Virus record (IMG/VR): IMGVR_UViG_2778261256_000004
Coordinates: 1 to 22,473 of that record
Direction: 5' to 3' (one strand)
Length of the DNA stretch: 22,473 nt
From: a virus
Lineage: Duplodnaviria > Heunggongvirae > Uroviricota > Caudoviricetes
The stretch's first letter is position 1. Each line of letters opens with the position of its first letter. The notes beneath the pieces are model-generated. The model was not told the DNA's origin, searched no databases, and worked only from the letters and a program-made list of their open reading frames with translations. The translations under genes were made by a program, and so were the position numbers. Of the stretch, positions 8,201 to 12,999 are shown one piece after another.

Positions 8201-10461
8201 AAGAGCTGTGCTATGGATCTGTTTGCAGTGGAATTGAAGCCGCGAGTATTGCCTGGGAACCGTTGGGTATGCGTCCGGCGTGGTTTGCTGAAATCGAGTC
8301 TTTTCCATCTGCCGTTCTTGCGCACCGCTGGCCCCATGTCGCGAACCTTGGCGACATGACAAAACTCGCCCAAAAAGTCCAGGCTGGAGAAATTGAAGCC
8401 CCTGATGTGCTCGTCGGGGGTACGCCTTGTCAGGCATTCAGTATCGCGGGCTTACGTGGTGGGCTTGATGATGAACGCGGCGCGCTAACTTTGAAGTATG
8501 TGGAGCTTGCAAATGCAATTGACGACAAACGGTCTGAGTCCTTCCTCAAACCGACAGTTATCGTCTGGGAAAATGTCCCAGGAGTCCTGTCATCAGCAGA
8601 CAACGCGTTCGGATGTTTCCTTGCCGGATTGGCTGGAGAAGATGCGCCATTCGAACCTGGTGATCGACCTGAATCACGAAAAAGTAACACGTTCTGGCGG
8701 TGGGATGTCAAAACCGGTTGCCATGCTCCAAAGTGGCCGCAGTGTGGTTGTATTTATGGACCGCAGCGAAAGGTGGCCTGGAGAATCCTTGATGCCCAAT
8801 ACTTCGGAGTGGCACAACGACGCCGACGCGTGTTTGTTGTCGCAAGTGCTCGAACAGACCTCGATCCCGCAACGGTACTTTTTGAGTTCGAAGGCGTGCG
8901 CCGGAATATTGCGCCGAGCCGAAAAAAGAAGGAAATCGCTTCCGCCATTACTGCAAATGGCGCTGCAATCAGTGGCGAAAGCCTAAATCCATGCCTACAC
9001 GCTGGCATGTCCCCCGATATGAAATCGACGAAAGCCGTAAACGGTTTCAGGATGGCGGCATTTGGGGAATATATTGACGATGAAACCGCATCGACAGTAA
9101 AGGCAAGAGACTTTAAAGATGCCACTGACCTTGCCGTTTTTAGCAGCACTGGAGCAGGTTTTTGGTCAGAAGGGCATGGTACATTGCGGGCGCGTGAGCA
9201 AGAAAGCCATGAGCATCTTGTTACATTGGCTTTTCCTGAGCGTATGAGTGGTACACAACATGCAGCAACTAAGAATACTTCACCATCTCTAATGGCTCAA
9301 AATCCAACTGCTGTTTGCTATGAAGTAAGAAACGAAGAAGTAGCTGTCCGCCGTCTTACCCCTGTCGAATGTGAGAGACTTCAAGGTTTTCCTGATGGAC
9401 ATACGTTGATCCCTACGGAAAAGCGTAAAAAAGTTAATTCAGATGAACTGGCATATCTGCGCAATCACTATCCAGATTTAAGCGAAGAAGAGGCCGCGAT
9501 GCTTGCAGCTGACGGACCGCGTTACAAAGCGATCGGCAATAGTATGGCGATACCAGTAATGCGCTGGATTGGCGAGCGGATTACCAAGGCTGCATGTCGG
9601 CAGAATGAAGGGCGTGAAACAAAAGAGCGAAAAGTTAAACCAGCGGCAGAATTCGAACGGTCCATATTCAAATGGGCTGGTGGAAAATTTGGTGTTCTGG
9701 AACAAATCTTTCGCTATTTGCCAGAAGGGAAGCGCCTGATCGAACCTTTTGTCGGTGGCGGAGCTGTCTTCACGAATGCCGGATACCAGGAAAATCTGCT
9801 AAATGATGTGAATGCTGACCTGATTAACTTTTACAAGACTCTGCAACGCGAGGCGCATTCACTTATCACACTGGCGCGTCGGTTTTTCCAGGACTACAAC
9901 ACACAGGAAGGATACCTGGCAGTACGGAATGCGTTTAACAAACAAGTCTATGATGATTTACATCGCGCAGCGGCGTTTTTGTTCCTGAACCGACATTGTT
10001 TTAACGGATTGACGCGTTACAACCAGGCCGGTGAGTTCAATGTCGGTTATGGGAAGTATAAAACTCCGTATTTCCCATTACAGGAGATGGAAGCCTTCCT
10101 CGGTGCGGAAGGGTGTTCTGAGTTTGTATGTGGTGATTTTGCTGCGGTGATTGAAGCTGCCGGAGAAGGAGATGTCATCTTCTGTGATCCGCCGTATGAA
10201 CCGCTTCCAAATACAGAGGGATTCACGAACTATTCCGGTCATGACTTTAAGTTTGAAGAGCAAAAACGCCTAGTGTCTCTGTTGACGGATGCTCATCGCC
10301 GAGGTGCAAAGGTTCTCATTACTAACAGTGGCGCGCCAAACATCAGAGAGCTTTATCATGACAATGGCTTCAGAGTGGAGCCTCTTTTTGCCAGACGTTC
10401 TGTGTCTTGTAAGGGGGACACTCGAGGTGTTGCTCATGACGTTTTAGGTATATTGCTCTAA
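8197..10461 (+). CDS. dmt: Bifunctional DNA methyltransferase: N-terminal C5-cytosine MTase fused to C-terminal Dam-like N6-adenine MTase (P1 Dmt-like)
   Basis: 754 aa with GTG start overlapping the hrdC stop, behind a GGAGAGG RBS. C5 motifs [12 protein letters not shown] (PCQ), VIVWENVPG (ENV), [12 protein letters not shown] and [10 protein letters not shown]. The C-terminal 270 aa align block by block with E. coli Dam ([42 protein letters not shown], catalytic FCDPPYEP). Confidence 0.92.
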
Positions 10462-10479
10462 TAAATTTATTAGTGTAAT
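10452..10479. promoter_or_regulatory. Overlapping bipartite C1 operator at the dmt stop codon
   Basis: ATTGCTCTAATAAATTT at 10452-10468 is a 17 of 17 match to the recalled C1 operator consensus and includes the dmt TAA stop. An inverted second copy, AAATTTATTAGTGTAAT at about 10463-10479, matches 15 of 17. Confidence 0.65.
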
Positions 10480-10642
10480 ATCGCCTCAATGAATCGTGAT
10501 TTATAGAGCGATTTAGCTGTTAGCCGCGACAGGCGCGGCGGTAAGCATGGCTGGGCCTAGTCCTCCCAGACAAACCACCGAGTTGCCAGGTTGACCATGC
10601 GCCTAAGTGGCAACGCCGAAGTGCGTTACGAGCTTCCAGTTT

Positions 10643-10668
10643 GCCCATCTTCGGGTGGGCGTTTTTTT
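10643..10668 (+). terminator. Strong intrinsic terminator (UUCG tetraloop hairpin plus U tract)
   Basis: GCCCATC-TTCG-GGTGGGC gives a 7-bp stem with one G-U pair and a UUCG loop, followed by GTTTTTTT. About 180 bp downstream of the dmt stop and the operator pair. Confidence 0.7.
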
Positions 10669-11133
10669 CAGGGTTTTCGTCATGGTTAGCGACTTTGCGG
10701 CGGTTTAGAAACTGACCATTAAAGTAAATGCAAACGATGATCTGATGATGGTAGCGGCCTAAGAAGCCAGACGCCACGGGGTATGAGTCGTCCCCCGTCA
10801 AAAAATCGACCGCAGAGTGTCCCCGTCTGTGTATTAGGGAACGGGGAGGCACAACAGGTAAGGGCGCTGGTGTGATTAACCAGATGAACGAGAAGGGGCC
10901 ATCTGTTGGTCAGCGTCCTTTCCTGTTGCGTCTTCTTTTCAGCGTAACAGCGGTGCTTAACAGCACTTTGGGTACAGTTCCACGAATTTACGGGTATATC
11001 CCGTCATGCTGAAGGCGCTAATCACGCTGGAAGCCAGGGTTGTGCATCCCCTGTTACCGAATTGCAGCCAGGGCGCGGTGCGCCGAAAAGCATACGGAGG
11101 TGGAAGCCCTCGCCGGAGACGTACCCGGCAAGT

Positions 11134-11209
11134 GATGGTGTAGCTCAGCGGTTAGAGCGGTTGACTGTTAATCAACGGGTCGATGGTTCAAATCCATCCG
11201 CCATCGCCA
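11134..11209 (+). tRNA. tRNA-Asn (anticodon GUU)
   Basis: 76-nt canonical cloverleaf folded by hand: acceptor GATGGTG/CGCCATC, D-arm GCTC-AGCGGTTA-GAGC, anticodon arm GTTGA-CTGTTAA-TCAAC, T-arm GATGG-TTCAAAT-CCATC, encoded CCA. The anticodon loop is identical to E. coli tRNA-Asn. Confidence 0.88.
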
Positions 11210-11211
11210 AT

Positions 11212-11287
11212 GCCGGTTTAGCTCAGTTGGTAGAGCGCCTGCCTTGTAAGCAGGATGTCAGCGGTTCGAGTCCGTTAATCGGCACCA
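11212..11287 (+). tRNA. tRNA-Thr (anticodon UGU)
   Basis: 76-nt cloverleaf 2 nt after tRNA-Asn: acceptor GCCGGTT/AATCGGC, anticodon arm CCTGC-CTTGTAA-GCAGG, T-arm AGCGG-TTCGAGT-CCGTT, encoded CCA. Confidence 0.88.
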
Positions 11288-12214
11288 ACACAACAGGTAA
11301 GGGTATTTTGCGACGTCGGAGATCGCCGTGCTTGGCAGAGGGTTCGAATCCCTACGAAGTACCCTTACCGTTGTGATGAATGCGCAGGCTGATGCGCGAA
11401 AGACATTGCAGCTATTGCGGAAAAGAGCTGTTCGGCGGGGCAATTAAACGCCCGTGAGAGTCTGAAATAACCGCAAGCCGGAGATCAGCACCGGTCATCA
11501 CAACACAACAGGTAAGGGCATTCTCCCTTATGGGGCTTGGCTTAAATGCATCGAGTGCTCTTACCGTTGTGATGAAGTGCAGCTCTTTGAAGCAACCAGA
11601 AGATAAGCATCTGGCTTCACAACATAAACCGCAGGAACGACCAATAAACGGTAGTCCGTATGGAGAACACCCCGTTGAGGAAGAGGCCTGGCCGGAACCG
11701 TAACCGGCACTACAACGTTGAGAACACTGGCGTAACGGGGTCATATCCCAATCTACGAATAAATGTTGCGTTGCAGCGTGACAACCAGTGTTCTCAACAT
11801 TGTGGTGAATGCACAGGCTGATGTGCCGCAACTACAGTAGTGCGCGCTTTGCGGGGCTTGCTACAACCCTGTGTCGGAGTTCAGCACCGACCATCACAGT
11901 TTGATTCTCTGGCATGAGCATAACGCTGAAATAAGTCCAGTCTGGTGCGGCCCGATCACCCGCCGTTAGCTCCACGAAACGGAGCACGTAACAGGTAAGA
12001 GCATTCTCCTGTAACGGGTTCATATCCCAATCTACAGGTCCACCAGGAATGCTCTTTCCGTTGCGGTGAATGCGGCTAAGCGCACGCGGAACAGTTAAAA
12101 CAATCCTCCTTAATGGTTAAACATTCCGGCGTTAATTGTTAACTGGTTAACGTCACCGGGAGGCACTCGGCACCGCAATCTAATAAATATGTCACTTTTA
12201 TTGAGGGATAACCA

Positions 12215-12649
12215 ATGTTCGGTAAATTGTTCGGCAAGAAAGTCGCTTCTGCAAAAGTAGAGCTGAAAAAAGTTGAGAATCGCGATCTGATGGAGGCCAT
12301 CATCGGTGGCTGTTTGTTGGTGTCTGCCGCTGATGGTGAAATCGAAAAAGAAGAAACAGCGAAACTTGATCAGCTTGTCCGCTCTAATCCGCGTCTTAGT
12401 CATTTTGGTAACGAAATTACTGCAACAATTACCCGCTTTACCGAGCAACTGGAAGCTGGCTTCCGTGTTGGTCGCATGAATATCCTTCGCGAAATTGAAG
12501 ATATCAAAAACGATCCAAAAGAAGCGGAAGAAGTATTCGTTAACATGCTGACAATTGCAGAAGCGGACGGTGAAATCGAGCCAGCAGAACACAAAGTACT
12601 GGAAGAAGTAGGCCGTCGTTTAGGTCTTCGTGTGGAAGATTATCTGTAA
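12215..12649 (+). CDS. tciA: TerB-like tellurite-resistance family protein (P1 TciA-like)
   Basis: 144-aa ORF with ATG at 12215 behind a GAGGGA RBS. Duplicated A(A/E)ADGEIE motif and acidic helical character typical of the TerB fold. Followed by two tiny overlapping membrane-peptide genes, as in the P1 tci cluster. Confidence 0.8.
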   Translation: MFGKLFGKKVASAKVELKKVENRDLMEAIIGGCLLVSAADGEIEKEETAKLDQLVRSNPRLSHFGNEITATITRFTEQLEAGFRVGRMNILREIEDIKNDPKEAEEVFVNMLTIAEADGEIEPAEHKVLEEVGRRLGLRVEDYL

Positions 12650-12923: not shown

Positions 12924-12999
12924 GGCCCTTTAGCTCAGTGGTTAGAGCTGGCGACTCATAATCGCACGGTCACCGGTTCAAGTCCGGTAGGGGCCACCA
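12924..12999 (+). tRNA. tRNA-Ile (CAU anticodon, lysidine type; host ileX-like)
   Basis: 76-nt cloverleaf: acceptor GGCCCTT/AGGGGCC, anticodon arm GGCGA-CTCATAA-TCGCA, T-arm ACCGG-TTCAAGT-CCGGT, encoded CCA. Near-identical over most positions to E. coli tRNA-Ile2 as recalled, which favours Ile over Met. Confidence 0.8.

Follow-up and report, generated by a model that had tools for sequence, protein, structure and literature searches.

An array of structured RNA modules with a cloverleaf-like core in the tRNA region of a P1-type phage

Introduction

What is encoded by a stretch of the classic phage P1 genome that has been annotated for twenty years as two hypothetical proteins? We addressed this question in 22,473 nucleotides of a P1-like phage (IMG/VR record IMGVR_UViG_2778261256_000004; this whole stretch is called the window below), in which we re-read the corresponding DNA as an array of structured RNAs. 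A first-pass annotation, made from the letters alone, had described here diverged repeats around a pair of tRNA genes and had proposed that they are novel non-coding or tRNA-derived RNAs, with possible roles as decoys or as processing or antitermination signals. All of the structural features that it listed were found in the sequence, and its interpretation as a whole was partly supported.

STnc100 is a prophage small RNA (sRNA) related to PasD (bioRxiv 10.64898/2026.05.13.724894), and both are Hfq-associated prophage sRNAs (PMC8550237; bioRxiv 10.64898/2026.05.13.724894). The present analysis places these little-understood sRNAs in a far larger family, in which one fold is conserved and two loops hardly vary and whose members come from temperate and virulent phages of three proteobacterial classes. 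Such conservation usually signals contact with core host machinery, and the family thus offers an accessible way to study a new phage-host RNA interaction.

Results

Annotation and coding potential of the interval

The first-pass annotation had seen no credible open reading frame (ORF) in the interval and had doubted that the array exists in canonical phage P1, and both points were corrected. ORFs of 139 and 63 aa on the − strand and of 104 aa on the + strand exist, and the interval is already annotated in reference phage P1, as plp, upl (two of these ORFs) and a “dicF-like region.” Reference phage P1 also carries the array, minus one unit: reference P1, D6, P7 and SJ46 lack exactly 196 bp between two 17-nt repeats (CTTACCGTTGTGATGAA). 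As judged from these genomes, the repeated arms recombine with each other, and whole units are gained or lost in this way. P1-like phages also differ in the tRNA genes of the array, which is a mosaic, with tRNA-Ser(UGA) in D6 and P7 and tRNA-Tyr in Ro157c2YLVW at equivalent places.

We then considered the − strand proteins themselves, Plp (a putative lipoprotein; 139 aa, 11412–11831) and Upl (63 aa, 11832–12023), which follow the reference phage P1 annotation and are annotated in both NC_005856 and RCS47. As an explanation of the interval they are hardly credible. No significant Pfam match was obtained (none for Plp and a sub-threshold E of 0.078 for Upl). Plp starts with TTG, its translation is rich in Cys, Arg and Ser, its C-terminal third is completely different between the window and reference phage P1, and in the latter it runs antisense through tRNA-Thr. 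Both genes have been left out of P7, D6 and the re-annotated phage P1, neither behaved as a conserved protein gene in our comparison, and the same DNA holds the covarying + strand helices described below. CRISPRi knock-down of plp, upl and trnT in phage P1 left plating unaffected (PMC10695390); both genes are therefore non-essential, and the array is dispensable in the laboratory. A tiny arginine-rich ORF that starts from helix B (MNAQADARKTLQLLRKRAVRRGN, 11377 onward) was also rejected, as its downstream sequence varies freely and it has no Shine-Dalgarno sequence.

Organization of the array

Five long hairpins, termed H0, three complete cores and one degenerate core are real repeats on the + strand of the window (10850–12180). 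Two tRNA genes lie among them, and the array is immediately preceded by a tmRNA-like tag module. In our reading, the interval holds four copies of a modular phage non-coding RNA, three of them complete and one degenerate, together with one orphan hairpin.

The module has two parts: H0, a long irregular hairpin with a variable insert, and a core, a four-way junction arranged like a tRNA cloverleaf. On the 5′ side of the core, a closing helix of exactly 7 bp (helix P1) is followed by a 3-nt AAU linker and by the 5-bp hairpin B (GCGCA-GGCUGA-UGCGC); on the 3′ side, a variable arm is followed by an N-A-A/U linker and by the 5-bp hairpin C (GCCGG-AGAUCAGCA-CCGGC), which abuts the 3′ strand of helix P1. 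The variable arm (24–166 nt across the family) occupies the position of the anticodon arm, and helix P1 and hairpin C form a stack of 7 + 5 bp that resembles the acceptor and T arms of tRNA. The loops of B and C are complementary (GCUGA/UCAGC) and both near-invariant, and could kiss in the style of the D and T loops. The “short GC hairpin” reported earlier is present; it is helix B of a junction that closes 100–135 nt further on, so the unit is larger than had been drawn.

All elements of the array lie on the + strand. The H0 of unit 0 (CACAACAGGTAAGGGCGCTGG ... CAGCGTCCTTTCCTGTTGCG; 10850–10931, −37.9 kcal/mol) has no recognisable core 3′ of it. A helix C-like hairpin (GCCGG AGACGUAC CCGGC; 11112–11129), read from the sequence and not matched by covariance model R1, is found 4 nt upstream of tRNA-Asn(GTT) (11134–11209), which is followed by tRNA-Thr(TGT) (11212–11287); ARAGORN and Rfam called both tRNAs, at 72–73 bits. 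As the earlier annotation had stated, both tRNAs lie inside the array and its unit 1, here copy A, begins 2 nt past the CCA of tRNA-Thr. The H0 of copy A (11289–11375, −40.8 kcal/mol) also holds the T-arm-like sequence that had been noticed (GGTTCGAATCC at 11341–11351; AGGGTTCGAATCCCT in the insert). In the core of copy A (11370–11504), helix P1 pairs 11372–11378 with 11496–11502 (UGUGAUG/CAUCACA) and encloses AAU (11379–11381), helix B (11382–11397), the variable arm (11398–11476) and helix C (11477–11495). This core is a seed member of the superfamily defined by R1 (87.8 bits) and is 97–99% identical to elements of lambdoid phages and Klebsiella phage IME207.

The H0 of copy B′ (the earlier unit 2; 11504–11571, −34.5 kcal/mol), whose insert recurs in Felix O1-like tRNA arrays, is followed by a degenerate mini-core (11566–11623) that is 75% identical to 11473–11508 and scored 10.4 bits with R1 (E 0.33). 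The mini-core has a P1-like helix (UGUGAUG/CUUCACA, 6 of 7 pairs), a B-like hairpin (11578–11594) and a C-like hairpin (CCAGA-AGAUAAGCA-UCUGG, 11597–11615), and the variable arm is absent; calling it a family member is a weak and doubtful call. Copy C′ (the earlier unit 3) has an H0 (11708–11807, −47.9 kcal/mol) and a second seed core (11799–11900, R1 71.2 bits), in which helix P1 pairs 11801–11807 with 11892–11898 (UGUGGUG/CAUCACA, one G-U) around helix B (11811–11826) and helix C (11873–11891); its minimum-energy fold reproduces the same four-way junction. A small conserved hairpin, GCUCCACGAAACGGAGC (11968–11984), which is also found 5′ of H0 in other contigs, precedes the H0 of copy D (the earlier unit 4/5; 11987–12067, −34.7 kcal/mol). 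The core of copy D (12060–12179) is of STnc100 type, with helix P1 at 12062–12068 and 12171–12177 (UGCGGUG/CACCGCA), a B-like hairpin at 12072–12087 and helix C (CCGG-GAGGCAC-UCGG) at 12156–12170; it matched R1 at 28.9 bits (E 6e-6), has divergent loops and stands outside the seed. From its end to the start codon of tciA, a gene that matches the TerB family, there are 36 nt.

Five units with shared arms had been reported. Exact arms were found in only three to four of the five: the left arm CACAACAGGTAAGGG begins at 10850, 11289 and 11504 and, in the variant form CGTAACAGGTAAGAGC, at 11987, and the right arm CTTACCGTTGTGATGAA is exact at 11364–11380 and 11560–11576 and diverged at 11793, 12054 and 10917. 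The arms of copy C′ are quite unlike those of the other units, yet they pair, and the inverted repeat noted in them extends to 23-nt arms (11708–11730/11785–11807) that are 91% complementary. The hairpins at 11382–11397 (GCGCAGGCTGATGCGC) and 11811–11826 (GCACAGGCTGATGTGC) were as described. The H0 hairpins of unit 0 and copies A, B′, C′ and D gave z = −4.85, −5.44, −5.66, −8.32 and −5.94, respectively, with none of 200 shuffles folding as well, and on the − strand they were weaker by 5.6–9.5 kcal/mol. The cores alone showed a modest folding excess over shuffles (z −1.8, −0.7 and −2.2).

Covariation of the core helices

A generic descriptor search for the fold returned mostly chance matches and was replaced by the covariance model. 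Pairing of helix P1 was tested in 97 unique family members that had been located without using this helix. Positions 1–7 pair in 90–99% of the members, pairing at positions 8–9, beyond the helix, is at chance (0.60 and 0.40), and permuted partners at positions 5–7 gave 0.52–0.68.

Alignment A1 consists of 56 sequences selected for perfect helices, so that its percentage paired is by construction; it showed changes on both sides in 11 of 22 pairs (79 cells). Its covariation score was 0.259, compared with 0.106 ± 0.006 for shuffled alignments, none of 500 of which reached 0.259, and at most 0.114 for slid controls. An independent set was assembled with the 22-mer of helix B alone as the query, which gave 105 matches in 100 bacterial species. 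All 100 species had a full-length R1 match (32–90 bits), and because every genome retrieved by the 22-mer matched, R1 is validated independently. In this set 98.7% of cells pair, double changes occur in 13 of 17 pairs, and the score was 0.269 against 0.084 ± 0.005, with 0 of 500 shuffles as high.

The stem of helix B occurs as GCGCA/TGCGC, GCGTA/TACGC, GCGAA/TTCGC, GCACA/TGTGC, GCCGG/CCGGC and GCAAA/TTTGC; the compensatory change noted earlier in the GC hairpin thus recurs family-wide, with pairing kept in all of these variants. The arms of H0 are wholly different between contigs and their complementarity is kept, and where H0 extends into helix P1, 3.39 of 4 positions pair, compared with 2.51 ± 0.09 when permuted. 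G-U pairs are numerous in both alignments. The G-U pairs, the better folding of H0 on the + strand and the same-strand tRNAs indicate RNA structure on the + strand. These results showed that the helices are real by covariation, on the + strand and over a wide distribution, and the proposed selection on RNA pairing was borne out by covarying pair counts far above both controls. Contact between loops B and C showed no covariation in these alignments; both loops hardly vary, loop C differs in some members, and the loops of the STnc100-type copy D have no complementarity.

The same data bear on whether the units have no RNA function of their own and are instead the remains of tRNA genes, or scars of recombination at the DNA level such as cassette-swap linkers. 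The mosaic array of P1-like phages, the gain and loss of units between 17-nt direct repeats and the T-arm remnants in the inserts would fit such an origin. It is nonetheless very improbable, since four helices are kept paired by compensatory changes across 100 species, the G-U pairs and strand bias indicate RNA, and an identical 22-mer in three proteobacterial classes is unlike neutral decay.

Matches to known RNA families

Copy D (12062–12177) matched the Rfam STnc100 model (RF02076) with 43.0 bits (E 2.9e-7), short of the gathering score of 47. In EPEC E2348/69, the PasD1 locus scored 37.7 bits with this model, likewise below the gathering score. Copies A, B′ and C′ gave no match to RF02076 at E ≤ 1, and nor did the more than 200 relatives of copies A and C′ found here. 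At the level of sequence and fold, copy D is shown to be homologous to STnc100, and the other copies form a sister family. The array is thus new only in part: its last copy is a near-threshold STnc100 match, and the other copies gave no match in Rfam 15. The Rfam alignment, the minimum-energy folds and R1 agree that copies A, C′ and D share the STnc100 architecture.

Several other candidates were rejected. PasA and PasC of EPEC reached only 10–14 bits with R1, on the wrong strand, and only PasD is linked, via STnc100. In phi80, R1 found nothing significant, and the M3 RNA, which is a known RNase P substrate, is an annotated oop homologue elsewhere in the genome. A C/D-box or kink-turn reading (GUGAUGA...CUGA) failed on inspection: GUGAUG is a strand of helix P1 and covaries, most members have GUGGUG, and the “C box” is not conserved. 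A hammerhead-like CUGAUG...GAAA was set aside on similar grounds, GAAA not being conserved and no Rfam ribozyme matching.

CACAACA is the published target consensus of the GcvB R1 region, and AgvB is a prophage anti-sRNA (PMC4104026). The CA-rich 5′ flanks of the array could sponge GcvB as AgvB does, or its GU-rich GUUGUGAUG could mimic the GcvB R1 seed. Five of the seven CACAACA copies in the 22.5-kb window are on the + strand within 10850–11624, the right arm CTTACCGTTGTGATG differs from GcvB CTTACGGTTGTGATG at 1 of 15 positions, and the RIL-seq partners of PasD1 include gltI and yhdW, which have CA-rich sites (supplement of PMC8550237). Duplexes with GcvB R1, at −19 to −23 kcal/mol, did not, however, surpass the 1st percentile (−23.7 kcal/mol) of the background energies from the window, and the motifs are base-paired inside H0 or helix P1. 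There was no match in the window to the Rfam AgvB/anti-sRNA families (RF02702 and RF02703) at E ≤ 1, and in relatives whose hosts are GC-rich the same segments have covaried into sequences of no similarity, so that the motif is not a family feature. We regard a role in the GcvB regulon as quite a remote prospect.

Upstream promoters and the tag module

Transfer of the reference phage P1 annotation (locus 1475–1520, offset 8961) placed the C1-controlled promoters P1ban/P2ban and the operator Oban (Op72) at 10436–10481 (+), the presumed start of the array-carrying transcript; a local consensus promoter scan called no promoter at these positions. The “dicF-like region” (10576–10668, +) gave no Rfam DicF match at E ≤ 1 and ends in a strong intrinsic terminator (stem 10642–10661 plus a T run). 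This terminator (10642–10668) lies between the ban promoter and the array and counts against the transcription that we propose in the Discussion. Between 10700 and 12200, promoter prediction and a terminator scan found no promoter and no strong terminator.

The tmRNA-like tag module (10683–10849, +) consists of a conserved leader, a 10-codon frame and hairpins after it. The frame at 10730–10762 reads GCA AAC GAT GAT CTG ATG ATG GTA GCG GCC TAA (ANDDLMMVAA*), with a GCA resume codon and a hydrophobic, A-rich C terminus as in tmRNA tags. Sixteen loci carry ten variants of the frame, all of 10 codons and of the form AN[DE]...[AV]A*, with a synonymous last codon (GCC, GCT or GCG). The tag module precedes the array module in phage P1, HK620, N4-like, Ackermannviridae and Felix O1-like phages. 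Its matches to the Rfam tmRNA_permuted, beta_tmRNA and alpha tmRNA models are weak and cover the tag region only, and the ARAGORN tmRNA search was negative at the default and 90% thresholds. Relaxing ARAGORN to 80% recovered the tags with many false positives, and this search was discarded. Helix P1 of the array cores has U3-A70 instead of the G3-U70 of the tmRNA tRNA-like domain, and no CCA. The tag module next to the array raises the possibility of phage interference with ribosome rescue.

Distribution and genomic context

Hundreds of proteobacterial phages and prophages carry the module, and only its STnc100/PasD branch had been described; more than 200 relatives were found here. Genomes of alpha-, beta- and gammaproteobacteria share the 22-nt B motif without a single difference, as do many families of phages, and the hosts of the module include temperate and virulent phages. 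Its usual site is a leader after a cI-like repressor (48 loci) or after Q (14 loci), and it also lies before lysis genes and in tRNA arrays.

These two commonest contexts are the two classical lambdoid antitermination positions, namely the leader right after the repressor where there is no N-like gene (as in mEp460) and the stretch between Q/PR′ and the lysis genes. The module might therefore act in cis from operon leaders and alter the RNA polymerase that transcribes it, by put-like processive antitermination or pause control, with its invariant loops touching this highly conserved enzyme. An identical 22-mer across alpha-, beta- and gammaproteobacteria fits a universal partner, and terminator-like sites lie within 150 nt downstream in 26 of 153 loci, against about 3 expected. 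However, in phage P1 the only strong terminator is upstream of the array, with none between the array and ban, many members are in virulent phages beside tRNAs, and STnc100/PasD accumulate as free Hfq-bound sRNAs. The early-operon leaders of HK022, the presumed location of putL and putR, also gave no R1 match; the only match in HK022 was a weak one of 20 bits in the nin region (the record has no put annotation). We consider this explanation unlikely.

A tRNA is found within 1 kb in only 14% of family loci. Of the 38 loci that have any tRNA, 33 have it within 1 kb, and in 31 of these 33 it is on the strand of the module. This adjacency, the acceptor/T-like geometry of 7 + 5 bp, the elbow-like complementary loops, the true T-arm consensus in some H0 inserts and the tag module that comes before the array module in several phage groups would suit a tRNA mimic, acting as a decoy for host defence nucleases or maturation enzymes or, with the tag module, in a trans-translation-like system. 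Against it, helix P1 lacks G3-U70 and the T and D loops are not canonical. CCA follows helix P1 in just 7 of the 97 members, so that tRNA-like end maturation is not encoded. The replacement of the anticodon arm varies freely, so that one anticodon cannot be mimicked, and the outer pairs of helix P1 vary, which leaves no single aminoacylation identity. Neither ARAGORN nor the Rfam tRNA and tmRNA models call the module; over the window, ARAGORN and the Rfam tRNA model called three genuine tRNAs and no array unit. The “tRNA-derived” label given by the first-pass annotation was thus not sustained, despite the tRNA-like core geometry and the T-arm consensus, and the mimic is in our judgment improbable.

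Discussion

Our best guess is that the module provides leader-embedded RNAs that are matured with the tRNAs. Taken as a whole, the explanation that we prefer, with a probability of roughly 0.5, is a modular phage non-coding RNA array that is processed and acts in trans. The array would be transcribed from the C1-controlled ban promoter, by reading through the terminator at 10642–10668, and would be cut into discrete stable RNAs alongside the tRNAs, with a tRNA-like shape that serves the nucleases of tRNA maturation. Once released, they would act in trans, either as Hfq-associated riboregulators like STnc100/PasD or as binders of a conserved proteobacterial host factor; with such a partner, the near-invariance of the loops would be accounted for. 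The same 4 nt can pair either with the 4 nt 5′ of H0 or with the 3′ strand of helix P1, and given this competition the module may switch between two folds.

A bolder reading has some chance, albeit a small one, of being correct: through the invariant tRNA-shaped junction, often accompanied by the tag module, phages may engage a universally conserved host machine such as the ribosome/SmpB, RNase P or RNA polymerase. If this is true, the junction would represent a new class of viral RNA effector in phages of alpha- to gammaproteobacteria, rather than an ordinary base-pairing sRNA.

Among known systems, the AgvB/AsxR anti-sRNAs of EHEC prophages are phage-borne and come from the same “moron” region downstream of PR′ (PMC4104026). 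AgvB carries CACAACA, the sole 7-nt motif in common with the array. They are primary transcripts of 51–60 nt with a terminator and are encoded convergently, whereas in the array the motif is mostly paired. The T7 RNase III hairpins between early genes, and tRNA punctuation, likewise consist of diverged structured units that separate functional RNAs in one transcript; RNase III sites do not have the conserved four-way junction and invariant loops of the array.

The tag module resembles tmRNA in its GCA resume codon after AUAAAU, in a stop codon within a hairpin and in a tag, AN[DE]xx..[AV]A, that is similar to the E. coli tag ANDENYALAA. Unlike tmRNA, it has no tRNA-like domain (G3-U70, CCA), and its ∼170 nt are embedded in a longer transcript. 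The array core shares with tRNA the four-way junction, the linker-free stacking of a 7-bp closing helix on a 5-bp 3′ hairpin, the short junction linkers, a possible D/T-like loop contact and the adjacency to tRNA genes, and differs from it in lacking an anticodon arm, canonical T and D loops and CCA.

The closest relatives are STnc100, PasD1 and PasD2, sRNAs that associate with Hfq and come from lambdoid prophages of Salmonella, EHEC and EPEC. They have in common with the array a closing helix of the form ...GGUG/CACC..., AAU, a first hairpin, one or more variable arms and a last hairpin that abuts the closing helix. They also occupy the same niche in temperate phages, the leaders of late or early operons close to genes of the TerB family. 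STnc100/PasD have a 3′ seed tail and a terminator, the predicted seed of PasD being in the 3′ tail before the terminator, whereas the phage P1 copies have neither; the terminator scan of the window found none 3′ of any copy. Copies A and C′ and their relatives are distinguished from STnc100 by their near-invariant, mutually complementary loops (GGCUGA/AGAUCAGCA) and by being preceded by H0, arranged in tandem and placed beside tRNAs, and their range includes virulent phages as well as alpha- and betaproteobacteria.

The interval between dmt and tciA

In the window, which is P1-like phage DNA, dmt ends at 10461 and tciA (TerB family) starts at 12215. The 1753-bp interval between them is 97–99.6% identical to P1-like phages, with near-full coverage in 12 records; reference P1 (NC_005856) covers 83%, split into two pieces. 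tRNA-Asn and tRNA-Thr occupy 11134–11287, and a third tRNA, with a CAT anticodon, lies at 12924–12999. The reference P1 annotation places C1-controlled ban promoters and an operator at the dmt end, together with a "dicF-like region," both tRNAs, and the minus-strand CDSs plp and upl. With these features the interval already carries annotation, and canonical P1 does have the array.

That the interval is coding, as the plp and upl calls would have it, is in practice excluded. A Pfam search gave no significant match for Plp or Upl, both genes are left out of other annotations, and a CRISPRi screen found neither to be essential (PMC10695390). Plp has a TTG start and a translation rich in Cys, Arg, and Ser; its C-terminal third is wholly different between the window and reference P1, where it passes antisense through tRNA-Thr. 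We infer that plp and upl are probably artefacts of ORF calling on structured RNA.

A conserved core with tRNA-like geometry

A 40-nt stretch around the short GC hairpin of the array gave BLAST matches in ∼190 highly varied phage records, including lambdoid, P22-like, T1-like Klebsiella, N4-like, and Ackermannviridae phages; the insert of unit 2 was found also in Felix O1-like tRNA arrays. Scanning IMG/VR for exact copies of GTGAATGCGCAGGCTGATGCGC yielded at least 120 contigs, nearly all with unique flanks, which were aligned on the motif. These contigs share a fixed plan. After a long hairpin (H0), the 5′ strand of the helix that closes the core (the P1 helix) leads through an AAU linker into hairpin B (GCGCA-GGCUGA-UGCGC). 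Next come a variable arm of 24–166 nt, a second linker with A-A/U as its last bases, and hairpin C (GCCGG-AGAUCAGCA-CCGGC), to which the 3′ strand of the P1 helix is joined without a linker. In the window the core is complete in copies A (11370–11504), C′ (11799–11900), and D (12060–12179) and degenerate in copy B′ (11566–11623); unit 0, the first hairpin upstream, is a hairpin without a core.

By stacking directly on helix C (5 bp), the 7-bp P1 helix recreates the 12-bp acceptor/T-arm stack found in tRNA, and the short linkers and four-way layout match the cloverleaf, with the variable arm at the position of the anticodon arm. Loop B (GCUGA) is complementary to loop C (UCAGC), so the two loops could kiss, as at the elbow of a tRNA. 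Near-invariance of both loops leaves no covariation that could prove the contact, and the complementarity is missing in a few members and in the STnc100-type copy. A rival explanation takes this geometry to be that of a tRNA or tmRNA mimic; CCA follows the P1 helix in just 7 of 97 members, and the trailer is A/C-rich.

Covariation in the core helices

Hairpin C was placed by its own loop motif, with the P1 helix not used, in 97 unique members. Positions 1–7 of the P1 helix were paired in 90–99% of them, and pairing fell to 0.60 and 0.40 at positions 8 and 9; randomly re-partnered strands gave 0.52–0.68 at positions 5–7. The outer pairs alternate among UA, GC, AU, and CG. This pattern of pairing, drop, and switching defines a helix of exactly seven pairs. 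In a scan anchored on hairpin C, the B stem covaried (GCGTA/TACGC, GCGAA/TTCGC, GCACA/TGTGC, GCCGG/CCGGC, and GCAAA/TTTGC), confirming the single compensatory change first noticed in the GC hairpin.

A 56-sequence alignment showed changes on both sides in 11 of 22 pairs (79 cells), and its covariation score of 0.259, compared with 0.106±0.006, was reached by none of 500 shuffles (slid controls, ≤0.114). As this alignment was picked for perfect helices, its percentage paired is so by construction. For an independent test, the B motif alone was used to collect 115 loci from species genomes, and 100 of these were searched with R1, the covariance model built from the 56 sequences. All 100 contained a full-length match (32–90 bits). 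Among 105 R1 matches, 98.7% of cells were paired (88.8% when shuffled), double changes occurred in 13 of 17 pairs (142 cells), and the covariation score was 0.269 versus 0.084±0.005. The analysis shows the units to be plus-strand RNA structures under strong purifying selection; that they are neutral scars is in practice excluded.

Long hairpins and repeat arms

All elements listed in the first-pass annotation were recovered in place. The plus strand carries five H0 hairpins (10850–10931, 11289–11375, 11504–11571, 11708–11807, and 11987–12067), with folding energies of −34.5 to −47.9 kcal/mol (z, −4.85 to −8.32; 0 of 200 shuffles as good). Minus-strand folds of each were weaker by 5.6–9.5 kcal/mol, as expected if G-U pairs matter. 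The proposal of shared arms held in part: the left arm is found unchanged at three places and the 17-nt right arm at two, and the remaining units have diverged. The arms of unit 3 are unrelated to those of the other units, with pairing kept, and between contigs the arms can be wholly different and still complementary (ACGTTGAGAACA/TGTTCTCAACGT, TCGGAGGTCGGC/GCCGACCTCCGA, and ATAAAATAGCC/GGGTTATTTTAT).

The P1 5′ strand also pairs, through its first 4 nt, with the 4 nt that precede H0 (3.39 of 4 versus 2.51±0.09 when permuted), and the two segments switch together (CACA/TGTG, CAAC/GTTG, CATC/GATG, and TGCA/TGCA). The P1 3′ strand needs the same 4 nt as this flank, and thus two mutually exclusive helices are both maintained, an arrangement suggestive of a conformational switch or of folding in a set order.

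Conserved inside H0 inserts is a small T-arm-like hairpin (GGG-7 nt-CCC) with the motif ACGGG-N-YCAUAWCCCAAUC, located at 11735–11756 in unit 3, at 12014–12035 in unit 4, and also in mEp460 (L003, 2722–2745) and other contigs. Separately, five of the seven CACAACA heptamers on both strands of the 22.5-kb window fall within 775 nt (10850–11624, plus strand), and the right arm CTTACCGTTGTGATG has 14/15 identity to the host sRNA GcvB itself, whose published target consensus is CACAACA (PMC4104026). Another rival has the units act on the GcvB regulon; the predicted duplex energies of the array CACAACA and right-arm segments with GcvB were unremarkable.

The array is a mosaic

A 196-bp segment between identical 17-nt direct repeats CTTACCGTTGTGATGAA (11364–11380 and 11560–11576), comprising core A and the next H0, is present in the window, RCS47, JL22, and OP279344 and exactly missing from reference P1, D6, P7, and SJ46. 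Core A is 98–99% identical to the copy in lambdoid phages and Klebsiella phage IME207, a likeness that suggests cassette exchange. At the equivalent place in the array, D6 (L005, 1907–1993) and P7 (L007, 2076–2162) carry an extra type-II tRNA-Ser(UGA), and Ro157c2YLVW (L006, 1553–1639) carries an extra type-II tRNA-Tyr(GTA). Because P1-like phages carry extra tRNAs there, the array is a site of tRNA cassette turnover. Whatever role the RNA has, whole cassettes evidently recombine at the conserved arms.

A tmRNA-like tag module upstream of the array

Directly upstream of the array lies a tmRNA-like tag module (10683–10849; AUAAAU-GCA AAC GAU ... GCC UAA), whose tag frame (10730–10762) encodes ANDDLMMVAA and a stop. 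The module recurs before H0 and core in HK620, a Klebsiella Ackermannviridae phage, N4-like IME11, Felix O1-like Sf16, and several viral contigs. The 10 different tags, among them ANEEMYLAVA, ANDNTFLAVA, ANDDVVLMAA, and ANDEQFLAVA, each have 10 codons with an AN[DE] start and an [AV]A end; changes in the last Ala codon are synonymous, and a covarying hairpin lies 3′ of the stop codon. A tRNA-like domain with alanine identity (G3-U70/CCA) was not found at the module (ARAGORN negative at default thresholds). If the module takes part in ribosome rescue, it would be more remarkable than the repeats themselves.

In the 13-tRNA array of Shigella phage Sf16 (L012, 1300–1550), the tag module (ANDNVFLAVA and two stops) comes before an H0-type hairpin that has an insert matching the one in window unit 2 (11524–11562) and lies directly 5′ of tRNA-Arg and an HNH homing endonuclease gene. 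Near tag module and core, Klebsiella phage UPM 2146 (L010, 1063–1137) and IME11 (L011, 1709–1777) carry compact elements that resemble a tRNA lacking its anticodon arm: the acceptor stem, the D arm, and a canonical T arm are present. ARAGORN does not call them.

Distribution, genomic context, and proposed expression

The exact 22-mer was found in Enterobacterales, Pseudomonas, Halomonas, Xanthomonadales, many Burkholderiales and other betaproteobacteria, some alphaproteobacteria, and a few MAGs of other phyla. Neighbouring ORFs were clustered for 235 loci. Upstream, 48 of them had a cI-like S24 repressor (∼1 kb away, same strand) and 14 had a Q antiterminator; downstream, lysozyme genes were present in 26, spanin genes in 17, and holin genes in 10. 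tRNA genes were within 1 kb in 33 loci, on the same strand in 31 of these, and where a locus had any tRNA it was nearly always this close. Terminator-like sites were enriched upstream and immediately downstream of the module. From these contexts the module is a leader or "moron"-region RNA, at times a free-standing sRNA gene and at times part of a tRNA array. The HK620 element lies between PR′/qut and the annotated late terminator, and that of mEp460, an example of the class with a cI-like repressor upstream, is in the leader of the leftward early operon, without an N gene; a further rival makes the module a cis antitermination element. In the HK022 nin region (L319, 11582–11693), a weak core-model match (20 bits, E 0.0016), whose ends read AGUGAAUGCGAAGG... 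and ...GCCAC, may be a diverged member between replication genes and Q.

The "dicF-like region" (10576–10668), for which no Rfam DicF match was found at E≤1, ends in a strong intrinsic terminator (10642–10661 and a T run) only ∼170 nt past the ban promoters. From this position, most transcripts may stop there, and the array, tRNAs, and ban would need read-through. No promoter-like or strong terminator-like site lies inside 10700–12200. In the favoured reading, transcription would start at a C1-repressed ban promoter and have to read through the terminator (10642–10668) to reach the array, and the transcript would be matured together with the adjacent tRNAs into discrete stable RNAs, with RNase P and related enzymes putatively recognising the tRNA-like geometry. 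These RNAs would then act in trans, as riboregulators like STnc100/PasD or as binders of a conserved host factor.

Relation to STnc100 and PasD

Copies A and C′ and many relatives matched no Rfam 15 family at E≤1. A copy-A variant is carried by 845 of 5426 complete E. coli genomes and annotated in none of the 845, and a literature search found no paper containing the motif. Copy D scored 43.0 bits (E 2.9e-7) against Rfam STnc100, just below the gathering score of 47, and R1, built without copy D, matched it at 28.9 bits (E 6e-6). In prophages, the sRNA STnc100 neighbours TerB-family and late genes; a 2026 preprint (bioRxiv 10.64898/2026.05.13.724894) links it to PasD1 and PasD2, Hfq-dependent sRNAs of EPEC (PMC8550237; PMC12370729). 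The PasD1 locus scored 37.7 bits on the STnc100 model, and its predicted seed UGUGAG sits in the tail between junction and terminator; PasA and PasC were not members in the R1 search. Taken together, the near-threshold match and the lack of an Rfam family, annotation, or paper place the array with STnc100, as a new and much larger variant of its kind. At one end, the family shares homology with an sRNA family that associates with Hfq, and the Rfam consensus of STnc100 has the same layout as copy D.
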